A DNA stretch of 64,000 nt from Candidatus Latescibacterota bacterium (lineage in GTDB: Bacteria; Latescibacterota; UBA2968). The DNA is taken from positions 704,001 to 768,000 of the forward strand of contig OZ241986.1 of the NCBI GenBank assembly GCA_965204375.1, written 5' to 3'. This document shows, piece by piece, positions 21,709-29,603 of the stretch. The notes under the pieces were generated by a model. It was not told the origin of the DNA, searched no databases, and saw nothing but the letters and a program-made list of their open reading frames with translations. The position numbers and the translations under genes were made by a program. How positions within the stretch are numbered: position 1 is the stretch's first letter; each line of letters starts with the position of its first letter.

Positions 21709-22875
21709 ATGAAAATTCACGAATATCAGGCTAAAGAAATTCTCAGATCTTTTGGTGTGCCCGTGCCAAATGGGGCGGTTGCTCGCACGGCCGTAGAGGC
21801 CGAAGCGATTGCCAGAGATCTCGGTGGGGCAGTGGTTGTCAAAGCGCAGATCCACGCAGGGGGCCGCGGCAAAGGGGGCGGTATTAAACTCGCATCCAAT
21901 CCTGCCGAAGCCAGAGAAGTGGCATCCGAAATTATTGGCATGCAACTCGTTACCCCGCAAACGGGTTCTGAGGGGCAAAAAGTCAAATCTGTTTGGGTGG
22001 AAAATGCGACGGATATTGACCGCGAATTATATTTGGGTATTGTGCTGGACCGCGCGCAGTCGCGTCTGGTCGTTATGGCTTCCCGTGCGGGTGGCATGGA
22101 CATTGAAGAGGTGGCTGCAACGACTCCGGAAAAAATTCTCAAAGAGGTCGTTCATCCAGGAGTGGGACTCCAGCCCTTTCAGGCGCGGCATCTCGCACTC
22201 GGTCTGGGTCTTGAAGGCGATCAACTCAAACAGGGGGTCGCATTTATCTCTGCTCTTTACAGAGCCTATGAGGAGACCGATTGTTCGCTCGCAGAAATCA
22301 ATCCTCTCGTGGTGTCCAAAAGCGGTGAAGTTCTGGCACTGGATGCCAAGATGAATTTCGATGATAGTGCGATGTATCGCCATTCCGATATTCAGACATT
22401 GCGCGATGTTGACGAGGAAGATCCGCTTGAAGTCGAAGCCTCAAAATACGATCTCAATTATATCAAACTCGACGGCGAAGTCGGTTGTATGGTCAATGGC
22501 GCAGGTCTGGCGATGGCTACGATGGATATTGTCAAATACGCGGGGTCGTCACCGGCAAACTTTCTCGATGTTGGCGGGGGAACCAATGTCGAGCGCGTCA
22601 AAAATGCGATGCGTATTCTCACGTCCGACGAATCGGTCAAAGCGGTGCTGATCAATATTTTTGGCGGTATTGTGCGCTGCGACCGCGTGGCCGAAGGCGT
22701 TGTTGCCGCGCTTGAAGATATCGAAATCAATGTGCCGCTGGTGGTGCGATTGCAGGGGACCAACGCCGAAGAAGGCGCGCAAATTCTCGAGAATTCAGGC
22801 CTTGAATTTACTGTTGCCCGAAAGCTCCAGGAAGCTGCCGAAGGCGTTGTTGCCGCGGTTCAAGATGCCGCGTAA
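21709..22875 (+). CDS. sucC: Succinyl-CoA ligase beta subunit
   Basis: MKIHEYQAKE, KAQIHAGGRGKGGG, NGAGLAMATMD, NFLDVGGG, NIFGGIVRCD. Confidence 0.97.
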   Translation: MKIHEYQAKEILRSFGVPVPNGAVARTAVEAEAIARDLGGAVVVKAQIHAGGRGKGGGIKLASNPAEAREVASEIIGMQLVTPQTGSEGQKVKSVWVENATDIDRELYLGIVLDRAQSRLVVMASRAGGMDIEEVAATTPEKILKEVVHPGVGLQPFQARHLALGLGLEGDQLKQGVAFISALYRAYEETDCSLAEINPLVVSKSGEVLALDAKMNFDDSAMYRHSDIQTLRDVDEEDPLEVEASKYDLNYIKLDGEVGCMVNGAGLAMATMDIVKYAGSSPANFLDVGGGTNVERVKNAMRILTSDESVKAVLINIFGGIVRCDRVAEGVVAALEDIEINVPLVVRLQGTNAEEGAQILENSGLEFTVARKLQEAAEGVVAAVQDAA

Positions 22876-22894: not shown

Positions 22895-22933
22895 AACAGG
22901 AGCGTATTGATGACAGTGCGCTCCTGTTTGTTA
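22895..22933 (+). terminator. Intrinsic terminator after sucC
   Basis: AACAGGAGCGTATTG-ATGA-CAGTGCGCTCCTGTT hairpin followed by a T-rich tract. Confidence 0.7.
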
Positions 22934-22942
22934 TGCCTTATA

Positions 22943-22977
22943 TTGACAATATGGCAACAATCCAGACAATATGGCAA
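22943..22977 (+). promoter_or_regulatory. 13-bp direct repeat overlapping a TTGACA hexamer in the AT-rich leader of the ubiquitin-like operon
   Basis: GACAATATGGCAA at 22945-22957 and 22965-22977. Confidence 0.5.
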
Positions 22978-23203
22978 GTTTTTCAAAATTGTACAAATCT
23001 CTAACAGAAAATAAATATTTGTTTTATATTAAATTACAAATTTTCGGATTTTGTGGTATATATATTGCTTTATTAATTACCGTTCATTATCATATGTACT
23101 CTATCCAAGAGGTGCAATCTTATGAAGGTGATAAACACTTCAGACAGTTTTGCATTACATTTGTTTCAAACCATTTGAGTTTGATTGAATTTAGGAGAAA
23201 AAA

Positions 23204-23665
23204 ATGAGCGAGAACATTAAGTATTTTATAGACGGTAAAGTTTTCACTACCTACGAATCTGAACTGACTATCGACAAGATACTAGATGAGGTGGGCCTGT
23301 CAGCTAATCAATATTATGTCGTTTCAAAGGATGGCATTGAGTATCGTGATCCTGATCAGACCATCAAGATCAATAACGGCGACTCTTTTGAGACAAGAAA
23401 ACACGAAGACTCACAAACAATGGATCAGGCCATTCGCTACAAAGTGAACGGAGAGGAACAAACAACGACAGAAAATCCCCTCACTGTGGAGATGATTCTA
23501 CGAAACGCCGGTGCTGCTGCTAGCATTGATGTTACACAAATCAACAGTTACTTTCTGGAAAACTTGGCTAGTGGTCACAAGTATGAGAACCTCACAGATA
23601 GGGTTACTATTAAAGAAGACGATCAGTTTTTAGCCGTTCACGTCGGTAGGACACCTGTGGCATGA
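23204..23665 (+). CDS. Multi-ubiquitin-like protein (two beta-grasp domains)
   Basis: Two repeats: IKYFIDG...LTIDKILDEVG...IKINNGDSF and IRYKVNG...LTVEMILRNAG...VTIKEDDQF; ends VGRTPVA; AGGAG RBS. Confidence 0.75.
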   Translation: MSENIKYFIDGKVFTTYESELTIDKILDEVGLSANQYYVVSKDGIEYRDPDQTIKINNGDSFETRKHEDSQTMDQAIRYKVNGEEQTTTENPLTVEMILRNAGAAASIDVTQINSYFLENLASGHKYENLTDRVTIKEDDQFLAVHVGRTPVA

Positions 23666-24042
23666 GTGATTTAAATAAAATCAATAGTGAACTCAGCGAA
23701 CTTGGATTTACACCGCAGATTGTACATTTCCCTGAATTTGGCAGTGGCGAGGCTGTTGTAATCGGCTATCCCGTGACCACTGGCCGGTACAAAGGTCAGA
23801 CTTTCAAGATCGGTATCAGTTTTCAAGAGGGCGGATATCCGGAATATCCCCCACACTTTCTACATGTCCAGACTCTTCCTGCATCGCTCTTTCCGGAATA
23901 TAGTCGTCATCGTTATGCTCACTCGGATTGGTCCGTCTTTAGCGTCCCCCCAAGTGACTTCTGGGACAATCTTCCATTGGAAAAAAAGAACATGAAGACA
24001 TATCTCAACAGACACTTGACGCGGTTCTGGAACCAGATATGA
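23662..24042 (+). CDS. Prokaryotic E2/UBC-like protein lacking cysteine
   Basis: GYPEYPPHFLH (UBC-type YPxxPP), WSVFS, terminal helix MKTYLNRHL; lies between the Ubl and E1 genes; ATGA overlaps at both ends. Confidence 0.65.
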   Translation: MSDLNKINSELSELGFTPQIVHFPEFGSGEAVVIGYPVTTGRYKGQTFKIGISFQEGGYPEYPPHFLHVQTLPASLFPEYSRHRYAHSDWSVFSVPPSDFWDNLPLEKKNMKTYLNRHLTRFWNQI

Positions 24043-25517
24043 AATATGAAGCTGTCTTGACCGAGACTATACACGAGGAGGCTTGTAACTTTCTTCTCAA
24101 GCACGTCCGCGAGGGCCGAAGACAGGAAGAACTTTGTTTCGCTCTATGGCGACCAAGTACCGGGGCGACGCGGAAGTCTGCTCTAATATTTGAGATTGTT
24201 CTACCCCGAGACAACGAACGTGATCTCCACGGGAATGTGAGCTTCGACGCCAGCTATCTGACGCGTGCCATAAGACTTGCCTCGTCAAAACAGGCAGGTT
24301 TGGCCTTCATGCACAATCACTTTGGCCCAGGTTGGCAGGGCATGAGCGAACCCGATGTGATTGCGGAACGCGATCGCATTTCCCCGCCTGCCCGCGCTAG
24401 CGGATTACCCTTGGTGGGCCTGACATTGGGAAGCGATTGCAGTTGGAGCGCAAGGTTCTGGACATGGGATAACAGACAATTTAATCGTTCGTGGTGCGAT
24501 AAGGTCAGGGTAGTCGGGCGTAAAATGAGGATCACTTTCAACGACCGCCTGATGCCTCCGCCCGAGAGGCAACCCGCGCTACGCCGGACTATCGATACTT
24601 GGGGAAAAGCGAGGCAACGCGATATCGCTCGCCTCCGGGTCGGTATCGTCGGCGTTGGAAGTGTCGGATGCATGGTGGCTGAAGCCTTGGCAAGAATCGG
24701 CGTCGAGAATCTCGTTTTGATTGATCCAGATAAAATAGAAACGCACAACCTTGACCGGCTATTATACGCAACCCATCAGGACATCGGAAAGCATAAGGTG
24801 CAATTAGCTTCAGATCACTTAAAGCACAGTGCCACGGCTGCCAACTTCAAGGTTCAGGCGCATGCGGAGGGGATTCAAACAGAGAGTTGCTATCTGGCTG
24901 CACTCGATTGCGATGTTCTGTTCTCCGCAGTGGACCGTCCCCTACCGAAGGATCTCCTCAACCGTATCGCCTATTCTCATTGTATTCCTGTAATTTCGGG
25001 TGGGGTTTTCATCGACAACAAATCCAACGGAACTATGGGACAAGCCGCGTGGAGTGTCGTGACCGCTGGTCCAGTTCGGCGTTGTCTCCGGTGTGACGGT
25101 CAATACACTACGTCGGATGTAACGATGGAACGAGACGGTTCCTTGGATGATCCCAGCTACATCGCCGTTGCGAAGACAGAAGGAGATACGCCTACGAATC
25201 AGAACGTTTTCCCATTCAGTGCTAACTTGGCGAGTTTTATGGTCATTGAAATGATTCGTCTGATCGTGGCTGAAAGCTGGTGGCCAGATGCTGGTGGCAA
25301 GTTGCACTACACCCTTATTCCTAATCGATTAACCATCTCGCAGGAAGCCTGCACCCCCAGCTGTTCGGTGTGTGCGAAAACCATGCACGGAGATCAGGAC
25401 GCTTATCCGTTCATTGTCAAGGTCTGCGAGGACTCAACGCGCTCGGCGTTGAGAAAACTGCTCGGTTCCGCCTGGAATAGACTCCGGGTTTTATTGCGTA
25501 ATAGGAGGCACCAATGA
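24039..25517 (+). CDS. JAB/JAMM peptidase - ThiF/E1 adenylation domain fusion
   Basis: N-terminal EELCFA and HNH-x8-S-xx-D; VGIVGVGSVG, IDPDKIETHNLDR, SAVD, CLRC and C-terminal CSVC zinc ligands. Confidence 0.85.
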   Translation: MKYEAVLTETIHEEACNFLLKHVREGRRQEELCFALWRPSTGATRKSALIFEIVLPRDNERDLHGNVSFDASYLTRAIRLASSKQAGLAFMHNHFGPGWQGMSEPDVIAERDRISPPARASGLPLVGLTLGSDCSWSARFWTWDNRQFNRSWCDKVRVVGRKMRITFNDRLMPPPERQPALRRTIDTWGKARQRDIARLRVGIVGVGSVGCMVAEALARIGVENLVLIDPDKIETHNLDRLLYATHQDIGKHKVQLASDHLKHSATAANFKVQAHAEGIQTESCYLAALDCDVLFSAVDRPLPKDLLNRIAYSHCIPVISGGVFIDNKSNGTMGQAAWSVVTAGPVRRCLRCDGQYTTSDVTMERDGSLDDPSYIAVAKTEGDTPTNQNVFPFSANLASFMVIEMIRLIVAESWWPDAGGKLHYTLIPNRLTISQEACTPSCSVCAKTMHGDQDAYPFIVKVCEDSTRSALRKLLGSAWNRLRVLLRNRRHQ

Positions 25518-26770
25518 GCGAGATTACTGAACTCTGTCTACGTGATGTGAGGTGCTTCGAGGGACGGCAATCTGCCCATTTGGGCCGAATTACTTTACTC
25601 GTAGGTGAGAACAGCACTGGCAAGTCGACCTTTCTTGGCTGCTATAAAGTGTTCGCCAAATTGTCAAATTTTATTGGGCTACAAGACAAAAACTATTTTG
25701 ATGAAGAGCCGTTCCGTATGGGAAATTTTGACACGGTAGCTCGTTCCGGTAACGAAAATTTTTTCGTTGGTGGTGCCTTCAAGGATCACTGCCATACCGG
25801 TGTCGAGTTTACGTTTACAGAGAATGATCGTGGCCTGCCGGCCGAGCAGAGAATCAGGCTGAAATTTGAAGAAGGCTACGGCAAACAGATCACTCTGGAC
25901 ATATCGTGTCCGCTGGAGTCGCCCAGATTGTGGAGATTTGAAGGTCCCGATTTCAGATTCGACCTTGACAGGTCCGAAGTGTCTTATGTTCAATTTTCAA
26001 CGTGGCTATCGAATTATGTACGCAATGGATTTCTTCCGTTCTTTGGTGAATCGTCGAGCTTCAGAAAGCGCGAGGGTAGAGACGCTACTATTGAACGGCA
26101 AATTGAGTTTGGGAAGTTCGTAAATTTTCTTAGAGCAAGGCTTCCGCTTCCAGAGGAATCAGCATTTATTGTTGAGACGCTTGATCCAGCAGCACCGCCG
26201 CGAGTACGTGTATATGATACATCCCCTTTGGGTGACGAAGATGACGTAGGACTAAAGAAATACCTAATGGAGGCAGGTAAGAATCTCGGTCTCTTTTCTG
26301 GTATTGACGTTCGGTACAGAACAGTAGACCGTTTATTTGAATTGTTAGTCGAAAGGTCCGGAAAGCAGTACAACATCGTGGATGTGGGCTACGGTGTGCA
26401 TAGTATTCTGCCTTTGCTCCGGGCAATTTATGGAAAGCCGAAAGGTACCGTTTTTCTACTACAACAACCAGAAGTTCATCTGCATCCGGTAGCGCAAGCG
26501 CAGCTAGCACAACTGATGGCCGAAAGTTCGTATAGATTCATTATAGAAACACATAGTGATCATCTTATTGATCGCCTTCGCATTTGCACCATGCGTAAGG
26601 ACATAAAACCGAAAGACCTTTCGATAGTATATTTTGAGCCGACTGACGGTGGGGCGAAGTCTCGGATATACAGCATTTCCGTCGATGATAACGGAAATTT
26701 GGTGAACGAGCCAGAAGGCTATCGGAGGTTCTTTCTCGACGAAACCGAAAAGCTGCTGGGATTTTTCTAA
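25514..26770 (+). CDS. ABC-type (AAA_15/AAA_21) ATPase with DUF3696-like C-terminus
   Basis: GENSTGKS, DVGYGVHSILP signature, LQQPEVHLHP, IIETHS, C-terminal SVDDNGNL...FFLDE. Confidence 0.85.
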   Translation: MSEITELCLRDVRCFEGRQSAHLGRITLLVGENSTGKSTFLGCYKVFAKLSNFIGLQDKNYFDEEPFRMGNFDTVARSGNENFFVGGAFKDHCHTGVEFTFTENDRGLPAEQRIRLKFEEGYGKQITLDISCPLESPRLWRFEGPDFRFDLDRSEVSYVQFSTWLSNYVRNGFLPFFGESSSFRKREGRDATIERQIEFGKFVNFLRARLPLPEESAFIVETLDPAAPPRVRVYDTSPLGDEDDVGLKKYLMEAGKNLGLFSGIDVRYRTVDRLFELLVERSGKQYNIVDVGYGVHSILPLLRAIYGKPKGTVFLLQQPEVHLHPVAQAQLAQLMAESSYRFIIETHSDHLIDRLRICTMRKDIKPKDLSIVYFEPTDGGAKSRIYSISVDDNGNLVNEPEGYRRFFLDETEKLLGFF

Positions 26771-26803
26771 AAAAGAAAACAGGAATTTTTGTAAAGCAAG
26801 TCT

Positions 26804-27289
26804 ATGTGTACTAGAATTATTATAGATGTAAATGTGCTTTCTGAAACTCTTGCTGACAGTACGAAAACCGGAGATCCGTTGCTACGCCGATGGATCACTC
26901 GTGGCCACGGGATTGTCGTGTATTCGGATACTGGAAAGTATCATCAAGAGATGGCAAGGGGAAACAAGAAGACCTTGGAATTGTTGGGGCAATACAGGAG
27001 GGCTAATCGGTTGTATCAAGTGACTGAGAAGCAACTTCAGGATGCGAGAAAGGGAATAAGCAAGTTGGACACCCGTTCCAATGATAAACATATACTGACG
27101 TTGGCTTACGCGAGCAGGGCTCTCATCTTATGCACTAAGGATAAAGATTTACAGCAAGATTTTACCAACACGAAATTTTTGCCGAAGATTGGAAAAAGCA
27201 ATAGATCTGTATATCCAATGAAGCAAGCTCGAAAGATACGAAGTGAATTTCTAGAAAAAAGAAAGTGTCCAAACCGCAGCATAGGTTGA
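26804..27289 (+). CDS. PIN-like domain protein (putative ribonuclease)
   Basis: IIIDVNVL...SNDKHILTLA...ILCTKDKDL pattern of acidic residues. Confidence 0.7.
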   Translation: MCTRIIIDVNVLSETLADSTKTGDPLLRRWITRGHGIVVYSDTGKYHQEMARGNKKTLELLGQYRRANRLYQVTEKQLQDARKGISKLDTRSNDKHILTLAYASRALILCTKDKDLQQDFTNTKFLPKIGKSNRSVYPMKQARKIRSEFLEKRKCPNRSIG

Positions 27290-27496
27290 GCATGTGATAT
27301 TTTGAATTATGCTACACGATCAAAGTAGTAACCAATGGTAAAAAATTAAAACGTTTCCTCAATCTATTGTCCAAGTTTGAGTATAAAGTCTGGCTATGAT
27401 AGCTCCTATTACCCCTGCTTAGTAAGGCGTAAGCCATTTATATATATTGCTTTATAGAAGGTGTTTATCCCATCACTCTAAACCAGAGGTTTTTTT

Positions 27497-27802
27497 ATGC
27501 CGACTTATGAATATGCGTGTACTGCATGCGAACACGAATTTGAAGCGTTTCACTCCATCACTGCCGAACCCATTCGCCTGTGCCCCGAATGCGGCGAGCA
27601 AAAGGTCGAGCGTCTCATCAGCGGCGGTGCGGGTCTGATCTTTAAGGGATCGGGTTTTTACATCACCGATTATCGAAGTGAAGGATACAAAGAGGCTGCG
27701 AAGAAGGACAAAGAAGCGTCTAAAGAAAAGAAATCTGACAAGAAGAAATCAGAGACCAAAAAGACTTCTGAATCAAAGAGTTCAGACTCTAAAGCGGCGT
27801 AA
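27497..27802 (+). CDS. FmdB family zinc-ribbon protein
   Basis: MPTYEYACTAC...CPECG...FKGSGFYITDY; Lys/Ser-rich tail. Confidence 0.92.
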   Translation: MPTYEYACTACEHEFEAFHSITAEPIRLCPECGEQKVERLISGGAGLIFKGSGFYITDYRSEGYKEAAKKDKEASKEKKSDKKKSETKKTSESKSSDSKAA

Positions 27803-27845
27803 AAAAAGGGAATTTTAGCCCTCTGACAGATAGAGCGCTACATCC

Positions 27846-27995
27846 ATGAATACAACGTATAGAGACACCATCGCCCATCTAATCGATAGGTCTCCCTTTG
27901 AGATTGAGCCTGATGTGCAAATAACTGGACATGCGCCTACTATGGCGAGTTCTATGTTTCTTACGAACAAAGAGCAGGGCGACTGGGGAGAAGAG
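27846..27995 (+). pseudogene. N-terminal stub of an AccI-family restriction endonuclease, in frame with the methyltransferase
   Basis: PTMASSMFLTNKEQGDWGE resembles, from memory, the conserved AccI-family start (PTxASSxFxTNKEQGDWAE); only 50 codons remain. Confidence 0.6.
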
Positions 27996-29528
27996 ATGCA
28001 GGTTAATCAAGCCAAATACCTGCGGCGCGTTGGCGAGAAGCATCGCAAGAGATATGGGCAGTTCTTCACTCGTCCTGAAGTAGCCGCGTTTATGGTGCGG
28101 TGGGTCTTGAAATCCGGGCAGAGGACCCTCTTTGACCCCAGCTTTGGTCTGGGTGCTCTTTTTGATCCCATTGCTGACGACCCGAGCATCGTGTTCGCTG
28201 GGAGTGAGAAAGATCCCAAAATTCTCGATTTCTGGACAGGCGAGGCAGGCGGGCGGAAAGTGGATATTGAGCATGAAGACTATCTGCTCTCATGGGGGAA
28301 ATCGCACGCCAATATTGTCTGCAATCCGCCTTACATGCGCTTCCAGAAGTTTATTGGCAGGGACTCTGTGTTCAAGGCGTTTGTCGATAATCTGGGCTTG
28401 AAATTGTCGGGATATACGAATACGGCATCCGCATTTCTGCTGAAGTCGCTCTCCGAACTGAATGGATCGGGACGGCTTGCGTATATTATGCCTCTTGAGT
28501 TTCTCAATACTGGATATGGGACTATCGTTAAGAAACGCCTTATCGAGAGTGGTCATCTTGTCTCTATTATCAATCTTAAATGCGAGAAAGATATCTTTCC
28601 CGATGCGATAACCTCAGTGGGGATAATCCTGTACGACGCCCGTCGGCAATATTCCCACGTTGATTTCCATATCGCTGATTCTATTTCCTCACTGAAGAAT
28701 ATCCTTGAATGTCAACCAACCACCAGAGTCGCATTGGATCGGCTCAACCCCGAGTCGAAGTGGTTGTCATACTTCCAAAAAAATACATTTGACATCAATC
28801 ATCGAATGGCTGTGCCCCTAAACTATTATGGTCATTTCAGCAGAGGCATTGCCACCGGAGCCAACGAGTTTTTTGTTTTGAAACCGTCTCGCGTCAAGAC
28901 ACTGGGGATCAATGGTTCGGAGGTTATTCCCTGCATTACTAAAAGTTCTCAAATCCGGCAATCAGTATTTGGTCGCGCAGACTACGATGATTTAGTCAGA
29001 AACGACGCTCCTGTTCTGCTATTTAGCGTCAATAAGACGCACTCGAAACACGCGGCAGATTATATTCGGAGTGGAGAGCAAAGGGGGTATAACACGCGCT
29101 TTTTGACGAAAAATCGAAATCCCTGGTACAAGACGGAAAGGAGAGAACCCGCACCGCTTCTTCTTGGCGTCTTTTCACGCGGAGGTTACAAGATTATTCG
29201 CAATAGAAGTGAGGTGTTGAATTTGACGTGTTTTCACGGTTTTCGACCAAACATCTTTGGAATGGCATATCTCGATCATCTGTTTCTCTATCTGGCATCT
29301 TCGTCAGGGCGAGACATAGTTTCATTATCAGTTCGGAGATACGGCGACGCGCTGGATAAGTTTGAGCCAAATGACTTGAACAATGCGCTTGTCCCAAGCC
29401 AGCAGGTGTTTGATGAACTTTCGACTAAGGAGGTTACCAAGGCTGTTCGCTATGCGGAAAGAACCGGAAAGACGCCTAGCTGGATAGACGCTTTCTTTGA
29501 GAGATTGAAGACGCCAGCCGATAGTTAG
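27996..29528 (+). CDS. Type II N6-adenine DNA methyltransferase (gamma class, M.AccI-like)
   Basis: GQFFT, FDPSFGLG (motif I), CNPPY (motif IV), RGIATGANEFF; own ATG at 27996 after GGGGAG; the ORF extends upstream to 27846. Confidence 0.88.
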   Translation: MQVNQAKYLRRVGEKHRKRYGQFFTRPEVAAFMVRWVLKSGQRTLFDPSFGLGALFDPIADDPSIVFAGSEKDPKILDFWTGEAGGRKVDIEHEDYLLSWGKSHANIVCNPPYMRFQKFIGRDSVFKAFVDNLGLKLSGYTNTASAFLLKSLSELNGSGRLAYIMPLEFLNTGYGTIVKKRLIESGHLVSIINLKCEKDIFPDAITSVGIILYDARRQYSHVDFHIADSISSLKNILECQPTTRVALDRLNPESKWLSYFQKNTFDINHRMAVPLNYYGHFSRGIATGANEFFVLKPSRVKTLGINGSEVIPCITKSSQIRQSVFGRADYDDLVRNDAPVLLFSVNKTHSKHAADYIRSGEQRGYNTRFLTKNRNPWYKTERREPAPLLLGVFSRGGYKIIRNRSEVLNLTCFHGFRPNIFGMAYLDHLFLYLASSSGRDIVSLSVRRYGDALDKFEPNDLNNALVPSQQVFDELSTKEVTKAVRYAERTGKTPSWIDAFFERLKTPADS

Positions 29529-29603
29529 AGTTCTTTCGTAATTTTATTTCAAAGTTTCATCGTAATATAGATAACTACTAGGAAAACTACTAGGAGGTCA
29601 TAC

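Follow-up and report, generated by a model that had tools for sequence, protein, structure and literature searches.

The closest described relatives of the system treated here are the type I Bub operons. According to the part of the source available (Ye et al., bioRxiv 10.1101/2024.11.21.623953), these encode BubAB (a fusion of a ubiquitin-like protein, Ubl, with an E2), BubCD (a fusion of a JAB peptidase with an E1) and BubE (DUF6527). BubCD's crossover loop is described there as cysteine-free with Y370 as its sole invariant residue, and BubB as carrying S333 with H335 and D299 nearby. Conjugation is abolished by Y370F and by S333A/H335A, and the pathway is a relay from E1 Tyr370 to E2 Ser333 via oxyesters; Tyr-to-Phe mutants lose conjugation in both the Citrobacter and the E. 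coli Bub. The same portion of the text reports BubE in all Bub operons and states that phage protection has so far not been demonstrated for any Bub operon and that the targets are unknown. Operons of the companion Bub paper were, as far as the available part of that source goes, drawn from DUF6527-containing operons. Here, a five-gene cassette related to these operons is described from a 64,000-nucleotide stretch of DNA of Candidatus Latescibacterota bacterium (GCA_965204375.1, contig OZ241986.1, positions 704,001–768,000 of the forward strand). This whole stretch is called the window, and all coordinates are its own.

The window holds a translationally coupled cassette encoding a two-domain Ubl, a cysteine-free E2 of the UBC fold, a JAB-E1 fusion, an NsnB-like ATPase and a PIN-like protein. 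The five genes lie in a row on the + strand between sucC (21709–22875) and a zinc-ribbon gene, and within the first four each start codon overlaps the preceding stop codon as ATGA (open reading frame list and direct translation). We consider it likely that the Ubl, the E2 and the JAB-E1 are a diverged sister system to type I Bub and would work by a cysteine-free oxyester relay from Tyr374 of the E1 to Ser94 of the E2; the basis is sequence conservation, fold, homology, a predicted interface and gene linkage. An earlier reading made from the sequence alone (the sequence-only reading) had put forward cysteine-independent conjugation as the point of interest and noted that Bub pathways were reported to use oxyester rather than thioester intermediates. 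This background agrees with Ye et al., who give mutant data; the cysteine-free relay itself is already known as the published Bub mechanism and cannot be claimed as new. Within the literature searched, novelty appears to lie in the variant: a Bub-like system that is widespread, differs in its catalytic constellation, lacks BubE and is firmly tied to an ATPase of the Menshen type and a PIN-like protein.

The E2-like protein and Ser94

The E2-like protein (126 residues) is encoded at 23662..24042 (+ strand). Translation yielded no cysteine and placed the WSVFS motif, with S91 and S94, at residues 90–94, in agreement with the sequence-only reading. The absence of cysteine from a single protein of 126 residues is not unusual; what exceeds chance is the conservation across relatives. 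A sequence search for this family of proteins of about 126 residues gave 137 hits (59 representatives at 50% identity), and the conservation counts for the E2 refer to an alignment of 164 relatives; an earlier, smaller alignment contained 36 sequences. Cysteine was never dominant in any column (maximum 14 of the 164), and 73 relatives were wholly cysteine-free. Ser94 (codon at 23941..23943, + strand) was kept in 161 relatives. The further conserved residues were P64 (164), H65 (162), W101 (160), H118 (156), P96 (155), D102 (154), P97 (153), K109 (150) and D99 (148). Ser91 was also considered as the nucleophile and was rejected, being a serine in only 88 of the 164.

The AlphaFold2 model of the protein had a predicted local distance difference test (pLDDT) score of 93.1 and was compared with known structures by VIA-align. 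Citrobacter BubB (9eae_C) ranked first (Z 9.4, root-mean-square deviation 3.6, 115 of 126 residues aligned), followed by the UEV domain of Tsg101 (Z 7–8) and many E2/UBC chains (Z 6–8); 203 of 999 chains reached a Z of at least 5. The sequence-only reading depended on a UBC fold, and the comparison indicated a UBC-like fold that is closest to BubB. The hallmark of canonical UBC E2s, a catalytic cysteine after an HPN motif, is not present in this cysteine-free protein. Family searches gave no Pfam match at 0.01 and none in NCBIfam or PADLOC for the E2-like protein; weak matches to Pfam UQ_con (best E 0.005) were seen in 4 of 36 relatives. The nearest cluster in the ESM Atlas has Prok-E2_E in 45% of its members (score 0.92), which serves as a lead only. 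Among the matches of the E2 search was also a protein of 4541 residues with nine stretches resembling E2 residues 33–85, perhaps a repeat protein assembled from a portion of the E2 fold.

The relation to BubB was assessed by aligning the 164-sequence E2 profile with a BubB-only profile, cut from 34 canonical BubAB proteins (hhalign; prob 69.7, E 4.2e-5, 106 columns). In this alignment S94 pairs with the serine of the BubB W-S-R-H motif, that is S333 of Citrobacter, and H65 with the invariant aspartate of type I BubB (equivalent to D299). W90 and W101 correspond to the flanking tryptophans, P96 to the histidine of S-x-H and H118 to a conserved histidine. On the evidence of sequence and predicted structure, Ser94 is firmly taken to be the catalytic serine of the E2, because it is near-invariant and aligned with the serine of BubB and lies in a UBC-like fold closest to that of BubB.

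The residues around Ser94 differ from those of type I Bub. The constellation of the latter (Ser, His at +2 and invariant Asp; S333/H335/D299) was not found in the E2 relatives, in which the +2 position is proline in 155 of 164 and the Asp column is occupied by His65 in 162 of 164. We propose that His65 (codon at 23854..23856, + strand), a candidate general base beside Ser94 by its conservation and its place in the BubB Asp column, stands in for the helper residues (Asp and His) of the type I pathway. Type II Bub (E. coli BubA, BubBD and BubE) also has an oxyester relay, from loop Tyr Y342 to E2 Ser S106, and its serine is accompanied by a lysine and a histidine, not by S-x-H; the E2 of the cassette conserves K109, H65 and H118. 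Type II Bub differs in that its E2 and E1 are fused, in that it includes BubE but not a JAB, and in that the E2 domain is Pfam DUF6791 in the genome's own copy.

In principle, the E2-like protein could be a non-catalytic adaptor resembling UEV or RWD domains, with an E1 that only adenylates the Ubl (to serve sulfur transfer or a direct aminolysis, in the manner of ThiF/MoeB or MccB-type enzymes) and no oxyester relay. The lack of cysteine would fit, UEV domains such as Tsg101 nearly match E2s in the fold comparison, and the E1 retains a Cys4 zinc site of the ThiF/MoeB type (see below); cysteine-less E2-like domains of 6e operons have moreover been read as inactive, according to the part of the source available (Iyer et al. 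2006, PMC1779556). Against this, a near-invariant serine stands exactly at the catalytic position, flanked by the conserved H65, P96, P97, D99, W101 and D102, and the homologous BubB is active through that very serine, as far as the accessible part of the Bub preprint goes. The intact JAB peptidase and the conserved tail of the Ubl also fit conjugation and processing. An adaptor function is considered improbable.

The JAB-E1 fusion, Tyr374 and the predicted complex

The JAB-E1 fusion (492 residues, 24039..25517, + strand) matched Pfam ThiF at 3.6e-34, above the family cut-off. Its best match in the PDB was Citrobacter BubCD (9ea4; 4.3e-16 over residues 13–327, and 2.1e-22 with a 32-sequence profile), and alignment with the canonical BubCD of the same genome gave a prob of 98.7 and an E of 2e-16 (hhalign). 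The BubCD match spans both domains, the JAB/JAMM peptidase domain (residues 1–165, 24039..24533, + strand), which was aligned to the peptidase domain of Citrobacter BubCD, and the E1 adenylation domain (residues 166–492, 24534..25517, + strand), which was assigned from ThiF and 9ea4. Searched on its own, the C-terminal stretch of 173 E1 residues matched nothing in the PDB at E≤10. Conservation was counted over 120 E1 relatives. The JAB residues E30, H92, S103 and D106 were each found in 120/120 and H94 in 119/120; the adenylation residues G205, G207, G210, R240, K253 and D299 were each found in all 120, with R240 aligned to R227 of BubCD. The features of the ThiF/MoeB/E1 superfamily (ATP-binding Rossmann-type domain, Gly-rich loop, Arg finger and Asp) are present in the E1.

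The fusion contains cysteines at positions 16, 33, 134, 153, 211, 284, 291, 315, 349, 352, 438, 442, 445 and 463. Four of them are invariant (120/120 each): C349 and C352 in the CLRC motif at residues 349–352 (25083..25094, + strand), which begins a Cys4 zinc site, and C438 and C442 in C438-x3-C442 (25350..25364, + strand), which completes it. The invariance of these four, together with the presence of E1 residues 439–441 and 443 in the predicted E2 interface described below, could be taken to favour ordinary thioester chemistry via an E1 cysteine near the loop (C349, C352, C438, C442 or C445). The E2, however, has no cysteine to accept a thioester, C445 is a cysteine in only 11 of the 120 relatives, and the invariant four show the CxxC...CxxxC spacing that ThiF/MoeB-type E1s have in their structural zinc site. 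Thioester chemistry is regarded as highly improbable. The Cys4 site is absent from the canonical type I BubCDs of the phylum in an alignment of JAB-E1 proteins (14 cassette-type E1s and 18 others). A third JAB-E1 subgroup (455–535 residues, ∼28% identical to canonical BubCD) keeps the CxxC knuckle.

The crossover loop (residues 353–389, 25095..25205, + strand) was delimited from the translation, conservation and predicted E2 contacts. The sequence-only reading had noticed a cysteine-free segment after CLRC that contains DDPSYI, and this was borne out by the translation: DDPSYI occupies residues 370–375, with Tyr374, and there is no cysteine between 353 and 437. Over the same range no column has cysteine in more than 8 of the 120 relatives. 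Tyr374 (codon at 25158..25160, + strand), the proposed E1 nucleophile by conservation and predicted interface, was a tyrosine in all 120 relatives and the sole invariant tyrosine of the distal half of the loop.

To compare this residue with the loop tyrosine of Bub, Y370 was identified as the tyrosine of a G-Y motif, because the chain numbering of 9ea4 runs two ahead of that of the paper (H93/H95/D106 versus H91/H93/D104). In the alignment of 14 and 18 JAB-E1 proteins the canonical group conserves only the G-Y tyrosine; in the canonical BubCD that the same genome encodes, a DPSYY motif precedes G-Y by nine residues. An exact column equivalence of Y374 and Y370 was considered and rejected: hhalign against one canonical BubCD paired DPSY with DPSY, but DPSY is not conserved in Citrobacter and other canonical BubCDs. 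The Y374 column holds the single loop tyrosine of the third JAB-E1 subgroup, and each of the three JAB-E1 subfamilies has exactly one invariant distal-loop tyrosine. The role given to Tyr374 is the less secure half of the claim, since this residue and Tyr370 fall in different alignment columns. More tentatively than for Ser94, Tyr374 is put forward as the best candidate for the E1 nucleophile, by its conservation and its position in the mobile loop and not by strict homology.

The sequence-only reading had suggested a structure prediction of the E1:E2:Ubl complex, which was run here as E1:E2. The predicted complex of E1 residues 165–492 with the E2 had an ipSAE of 0.68 (median of 3 runs), compared with 0.29 for the best control; 58 of 80 solved complexes came up to that mark, as did 2 of 110 mismatched pairs. 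The runs shared at least 95% of contacts, and the pLDDT of the partner was at least 88. In the model the crossover loop, including Tyr374, is laid on the Ser94 face of the E2. The predicted interface comprises residues 351, 357–363, 365–368, 371, 373–374, 439–441, 443 and 457–458 on the E1 side and 55–58, 61–66, 78, 80, 94, 96–98 and 101–106 on the E2 side, the latter coinciding with the conserved E2 residues. E1 residue 362 contacts both residue 65 and residue 94 of the E2. The pass of the complex may reflect likeness to the solved BubCD–BubB structure 9eae and would then not be independent evidence.

A number of observations weigh against the Tyr374-to-Ser94 relay in a sister of type I Bub. 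On the side of the E2, Foldseek alone retrieved nothing at E≤0.001 for the model (BubB at rank 3, E 0.13), the sequence had only a chance match in the PDB (E 1.5), and Prok-E2_E (PF14462) was not among the Pfam families reported for 36 members at E≤10. The 36-sequence E2 alignment matched neither a single BubAB nor the full-length BubAB alignment significantly (hhalign; prob 0.8 and E 0.07 for the latter), the pairing of S94 and H65 in these non-significant alignments being identical to that given above. The E2 has S-x-P-P in place of the S-x-H motif. BubE (DUF6527, PF20137) was not found among the five cassette proteins, and the two matches of the genome sit in its canonical Bub operons. On the side of the E1, other loop hydroxyls are conserved as well (Y356 in 120/120, S368 in 118/120 and S359 in 114/120), Y374 falls some nine columns upstream of the position that corresponds to Y370, and the distance from the distal-loop tyrosine to the loop end is 15 residues in the cassette E1 compared with 7–9 in the other two JAB-E1 subfamilies. 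Finally, the lowest-error contacts listed for Ser94 are with E1 residues 362, 363 and 366, and not with 374.

In an alternative reading the Ser94 relay holds and the E1 nucleophile is not Tyr374: either Tyr356, Ser359 or Ser368 takes this role, or the E1 forms no covalent intermediate and Ser94 attacks the Ubl-adenylate directly. The conservation of the three hydroxyls, the position of Y374 upstream of the Y370 column and the contacts of Ser94 all count in its favour. Y356, however, matches Citrobacter Y347, at the fixed start of the loop by the zinc knuckle, and the portion of the paper available does not implicate Y347. The occurrence of one invariant distal-loop tyrosine in each of the three subfamilies, and the loss of conjugation in the Citrobacter and E. 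coli Tyr-to-Phe mutants reported in the same portion, also speak against this alternative. A nucleophile other than Tyr374 seems rather unlikely. Overall, of the relay from E1-Tyr374 to E2-Ser94 that the sequence-only reading had proposed, the Ser94 part stood, by the conservation of this residue and its alignment with Ser333 of BubB, and the Tyr374 part stood by its invariance and place in the interface and fell as an equivalent of the Y370 column.

The ubiquitin-like protein and the proposed relay

The Ubl (153 residues, 23204..23665, + strand) consists of two beta-grasp-like halves and ends in an invariant G148-x-T-P-V-A153. Alignment with BubAB (hhalign; prob 94.9, E 4e-8) matched residues 3–86 to the first beta-grasp domain of BubAB, and Pfam Multi_ubiq matched 4 of 20 relatives weakly. 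The G-x-T-P-V-A tail (residues 148–153, window 23645–23662) was invariant in 20/20 relatives. Most Ubl reading frames end directly after the alanine, and 8 of 64 run on into the E2, as in BubAB. The mature C-terminus of the Ubl may be an alanine and not a glycine, or else the JAB domain may remove the five residues that follow G148 as a conserved propeptide.

In the relay from Tyr374 to Ser94, which we favour, the JAB domain would trim the Ubl where it is fused or extended, and the E1 domain would adenylate its C-terminus. Tyr374, carried by the mobile crossover loop that has no cysteine, would accept the Ubl on its hydroxyl as an aryl oxyester. The loop would then dock on the E2 face formed by Y59–F66, S94, P96–S98 and W101–D102 and pass the Ubl to Ser94, which is probably activated by His65 in the Asp column of type I Bub, the histidine of the S-x-H of Bub being a proline here. 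From Ser94 the E2 would transfer the Ubl to a lysine or other nucleophile of a target.

With type I Bub (PDB 9ea4, 9eae and 9eav), which provides the best PDB matches for both the E1 and the E2, the cassette has in common the JAB-E1 fusion with a cysteine-free crossover loop and an invariant loop tyrosine, the cysteine-free UBC-fold E2 with a near-invariant serine at the catalytic position, and a multi-beta-grasp Ubl. The Ubl-E2 fusion of Bub, from which the JAB domain frees the Ubl, is found in the 8 of 64 cassette relatives mentioned above, while the window itself has separate reading frames for the two. The differences lie in the E2 (S-x-P-P instead of S-x-H, His65 in the Asp column and not Prok-E2_E), in the loop tyrosine, which stands in another alignment column, in the Cys4 zinc site of the E1, which the canonical BubCDs examined do not have, in the end of the Ubl (G-x-TPVA compared with the terminal glycine of Bub), and in the gene content, with no BubE and with an added NsnB-like ATPase and PIN-like gene. 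A classification as a canonical type I Bub operon was rejected on the lack of BubE, of S-x-H and of a Prok-E2_E match.

The same genome carries two canonical Bub operons elsewhere, one of type II at ∼4.05 Mb and one of type I at ∼5.62 Mb; the canonical BubAB matches Prok-E2_E (PF14462) at 2.9e-31. In the type I operon BubAB (Multi_ubiq and Prok-E2_E) is joined by BubCD and BubE, and the next gene encodes an OLD-like ABC ATPase of 545 residues. The type II operon consists of a DUF6791-ThiF protein and BubE, with an HTH/Peptidase_M78 regulator pair upstream. The Bil (bacterial ISG15-like) and CBASS Cap2/Cap3 systems also have an E1, an E2, a JAB, a Ubl or substrate tail and a defence context in common with the cassette, but differ by their catalytic cysteines and thioesters, according to the part of the Bub preprint available (bioRxiv 10.1101/2024.11.21.623953).

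The ATPase, the PIN-like protein and the distribution of the cassette

The fourth gene (25514..26770, + strand) encodes an ABC-type ATPase of 418 residues that resembles Menshen NsnB and has a DUF3696-like C-terminus. Pfam AAA_21 (1e-16) and AAA_15 (7e-13) matched above their cut-offs, and the DUF3696 tail matched weakly (E 0.0023; 18.5 bits, below the cut-off of 22 bits); in PADLOC the protein matched NsnB (6.1e-41) and AriA (8e-19). The Walker A motif (GENSxGKS/T) is intact. In the Walker B region (residues 315–322, window 26456–26479) LLQQPE is found instead of hhhhDE, as in most of 65 relatives; judged from the sequence, ATP may be bound with slow or altered hydrolysis.

The fifth gene (26804..27289, + strand) encodes a PIN-like protein of 161 residues without an extra domain (AlphaFold2 model, pLDDT 92.8). 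The top Foldseek rows were the PIN proteins FitB, AF0591, SMG6 and VapC (E 1e-3 to 1e-2, prob 0.99). The acidic residues D8, D94 and D119 are invariant, and E49 and D113 are conserved to at least 90%. The N-terminal Met-Cys and Cys155 are invariant in 24/24 sequences, and the two cysteines have no apparent function; the N-terminal cysteine would, if used, be an unusual acyl acceptor.

Menshen consists, in the part of the source available (PMC12065111), of the sensor NsnA, the ABC ATPase NsnB and the effector NsnC, whose PIN-like N-domain is predicted to be clamped by the DUF3696 pair of NsnB. Genes 4 and 5 of the cassette look similar to the NsnB–NsnC pair described there: an ATPase with a DUF3696-like tail, and after it a protein of probable PIN-like fold. 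Where Menshen has the NsnA sensor, the cassette has the Ubl/E2/JAB-E1 module; no Pfam match to the ParB-DUF262 of NsnA was found in the cassette or its flanks. The cassette ATPase differs further by the QQPE of its Walker B, and the PIN-like protein by the absence of a C-terminal effector domain and the retention of the acidic residues, whereas the PIN domains of NsnC are described as inactive in the same part of the source. The text of the Menshen paper (PMC12065111) makes no mention of ubiquitin, ThiF, JAB, E1-like proteins or conjugation, and the text of the Bub paper (bioRxiv 10.1101/2024.11.21.623953), in the part available, none of an ATPase, nuclease, effector or Menshen. The literature search found no paper joining a Ubl/E2/JAB-E1 module to an NsnB-like ATPase; the supplementary operon tables of both Bub preprints, which could hold such loci, lay outside its coverage.

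Distribution was assessed over 73 loci taken from contigs of one genome per species, some of which end early at contig ends. All five genes occur in the same order in 60 of the 73, in many phyla; the E2, the E1 and the ATPase are together in 66, and the PIN-like gene is present in 63. The hosts, by record titles, belong to Acidobacteriota, Gemmatimonadota, Rhodothermales, Proteobacteria, Spirochaetia, Dehalococcoidia, Binatia and Latescibacterota. Within the phylum of the window the E2 is present in 12 of 168 genomes, including 4 of the 20 other genomes of the genus. A tblastn search with the E2 gave no match among 72,556 plasmid and 50,697 phage records. Since the cassette has no DUF6527, the entry point of the companion paper, and its E2 is missed by Prok-E2_E, it could have been overlooked in the Bub catalogue.

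In the genome, the sucC that precedes the cassette has no sucD after it, and downstream of the cassette lies a gene for an Eco57I/N6_Mtase-type DNA methylase (27846–29528), followed by dnaK. The G+C content of the window is 0.43–0.46 at 22–28 kb, compared with ∼0.50–0.52 in the flanks. The stretch 22900–29530, that is the cassette with the adjoining methylase gene, at lower G+C and between sucC and dnaK, looks like a small acquired island.

It is possible, and suggested here only tentatively, that the cassette is a hybrid immune system in which a Bub-like cysteine-free conjugation module replaces the NsnA sensor of a Menshen-type ATPase–PIN effector, so that the nuclease would be turned on by attaching or removing the Ubl. 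The partner that is modified could then be the ATPase, the PIN-like protein (with its invariant N-terminal Met-Cys, an unusual acceptor) or a phage protein. If true, this would provide a first effector for Bub-type pathways together with a testable target, and a third catalytic arrangement of an oxyester E2, Ser94–His65 with S-x-P-P and a Ubl ending in alanine. The tie of the cysteine-free E1/E2 core to an ATPase of the Menshen kind and a PIN-like protein in 60 of 73 loci suggests a destination for the Ubl signal and offers a compact system for the search for targets. The family widens the sequence space of oxyester E2s, and the altered residues around the serine can help to define the reactivity of serine E2s.

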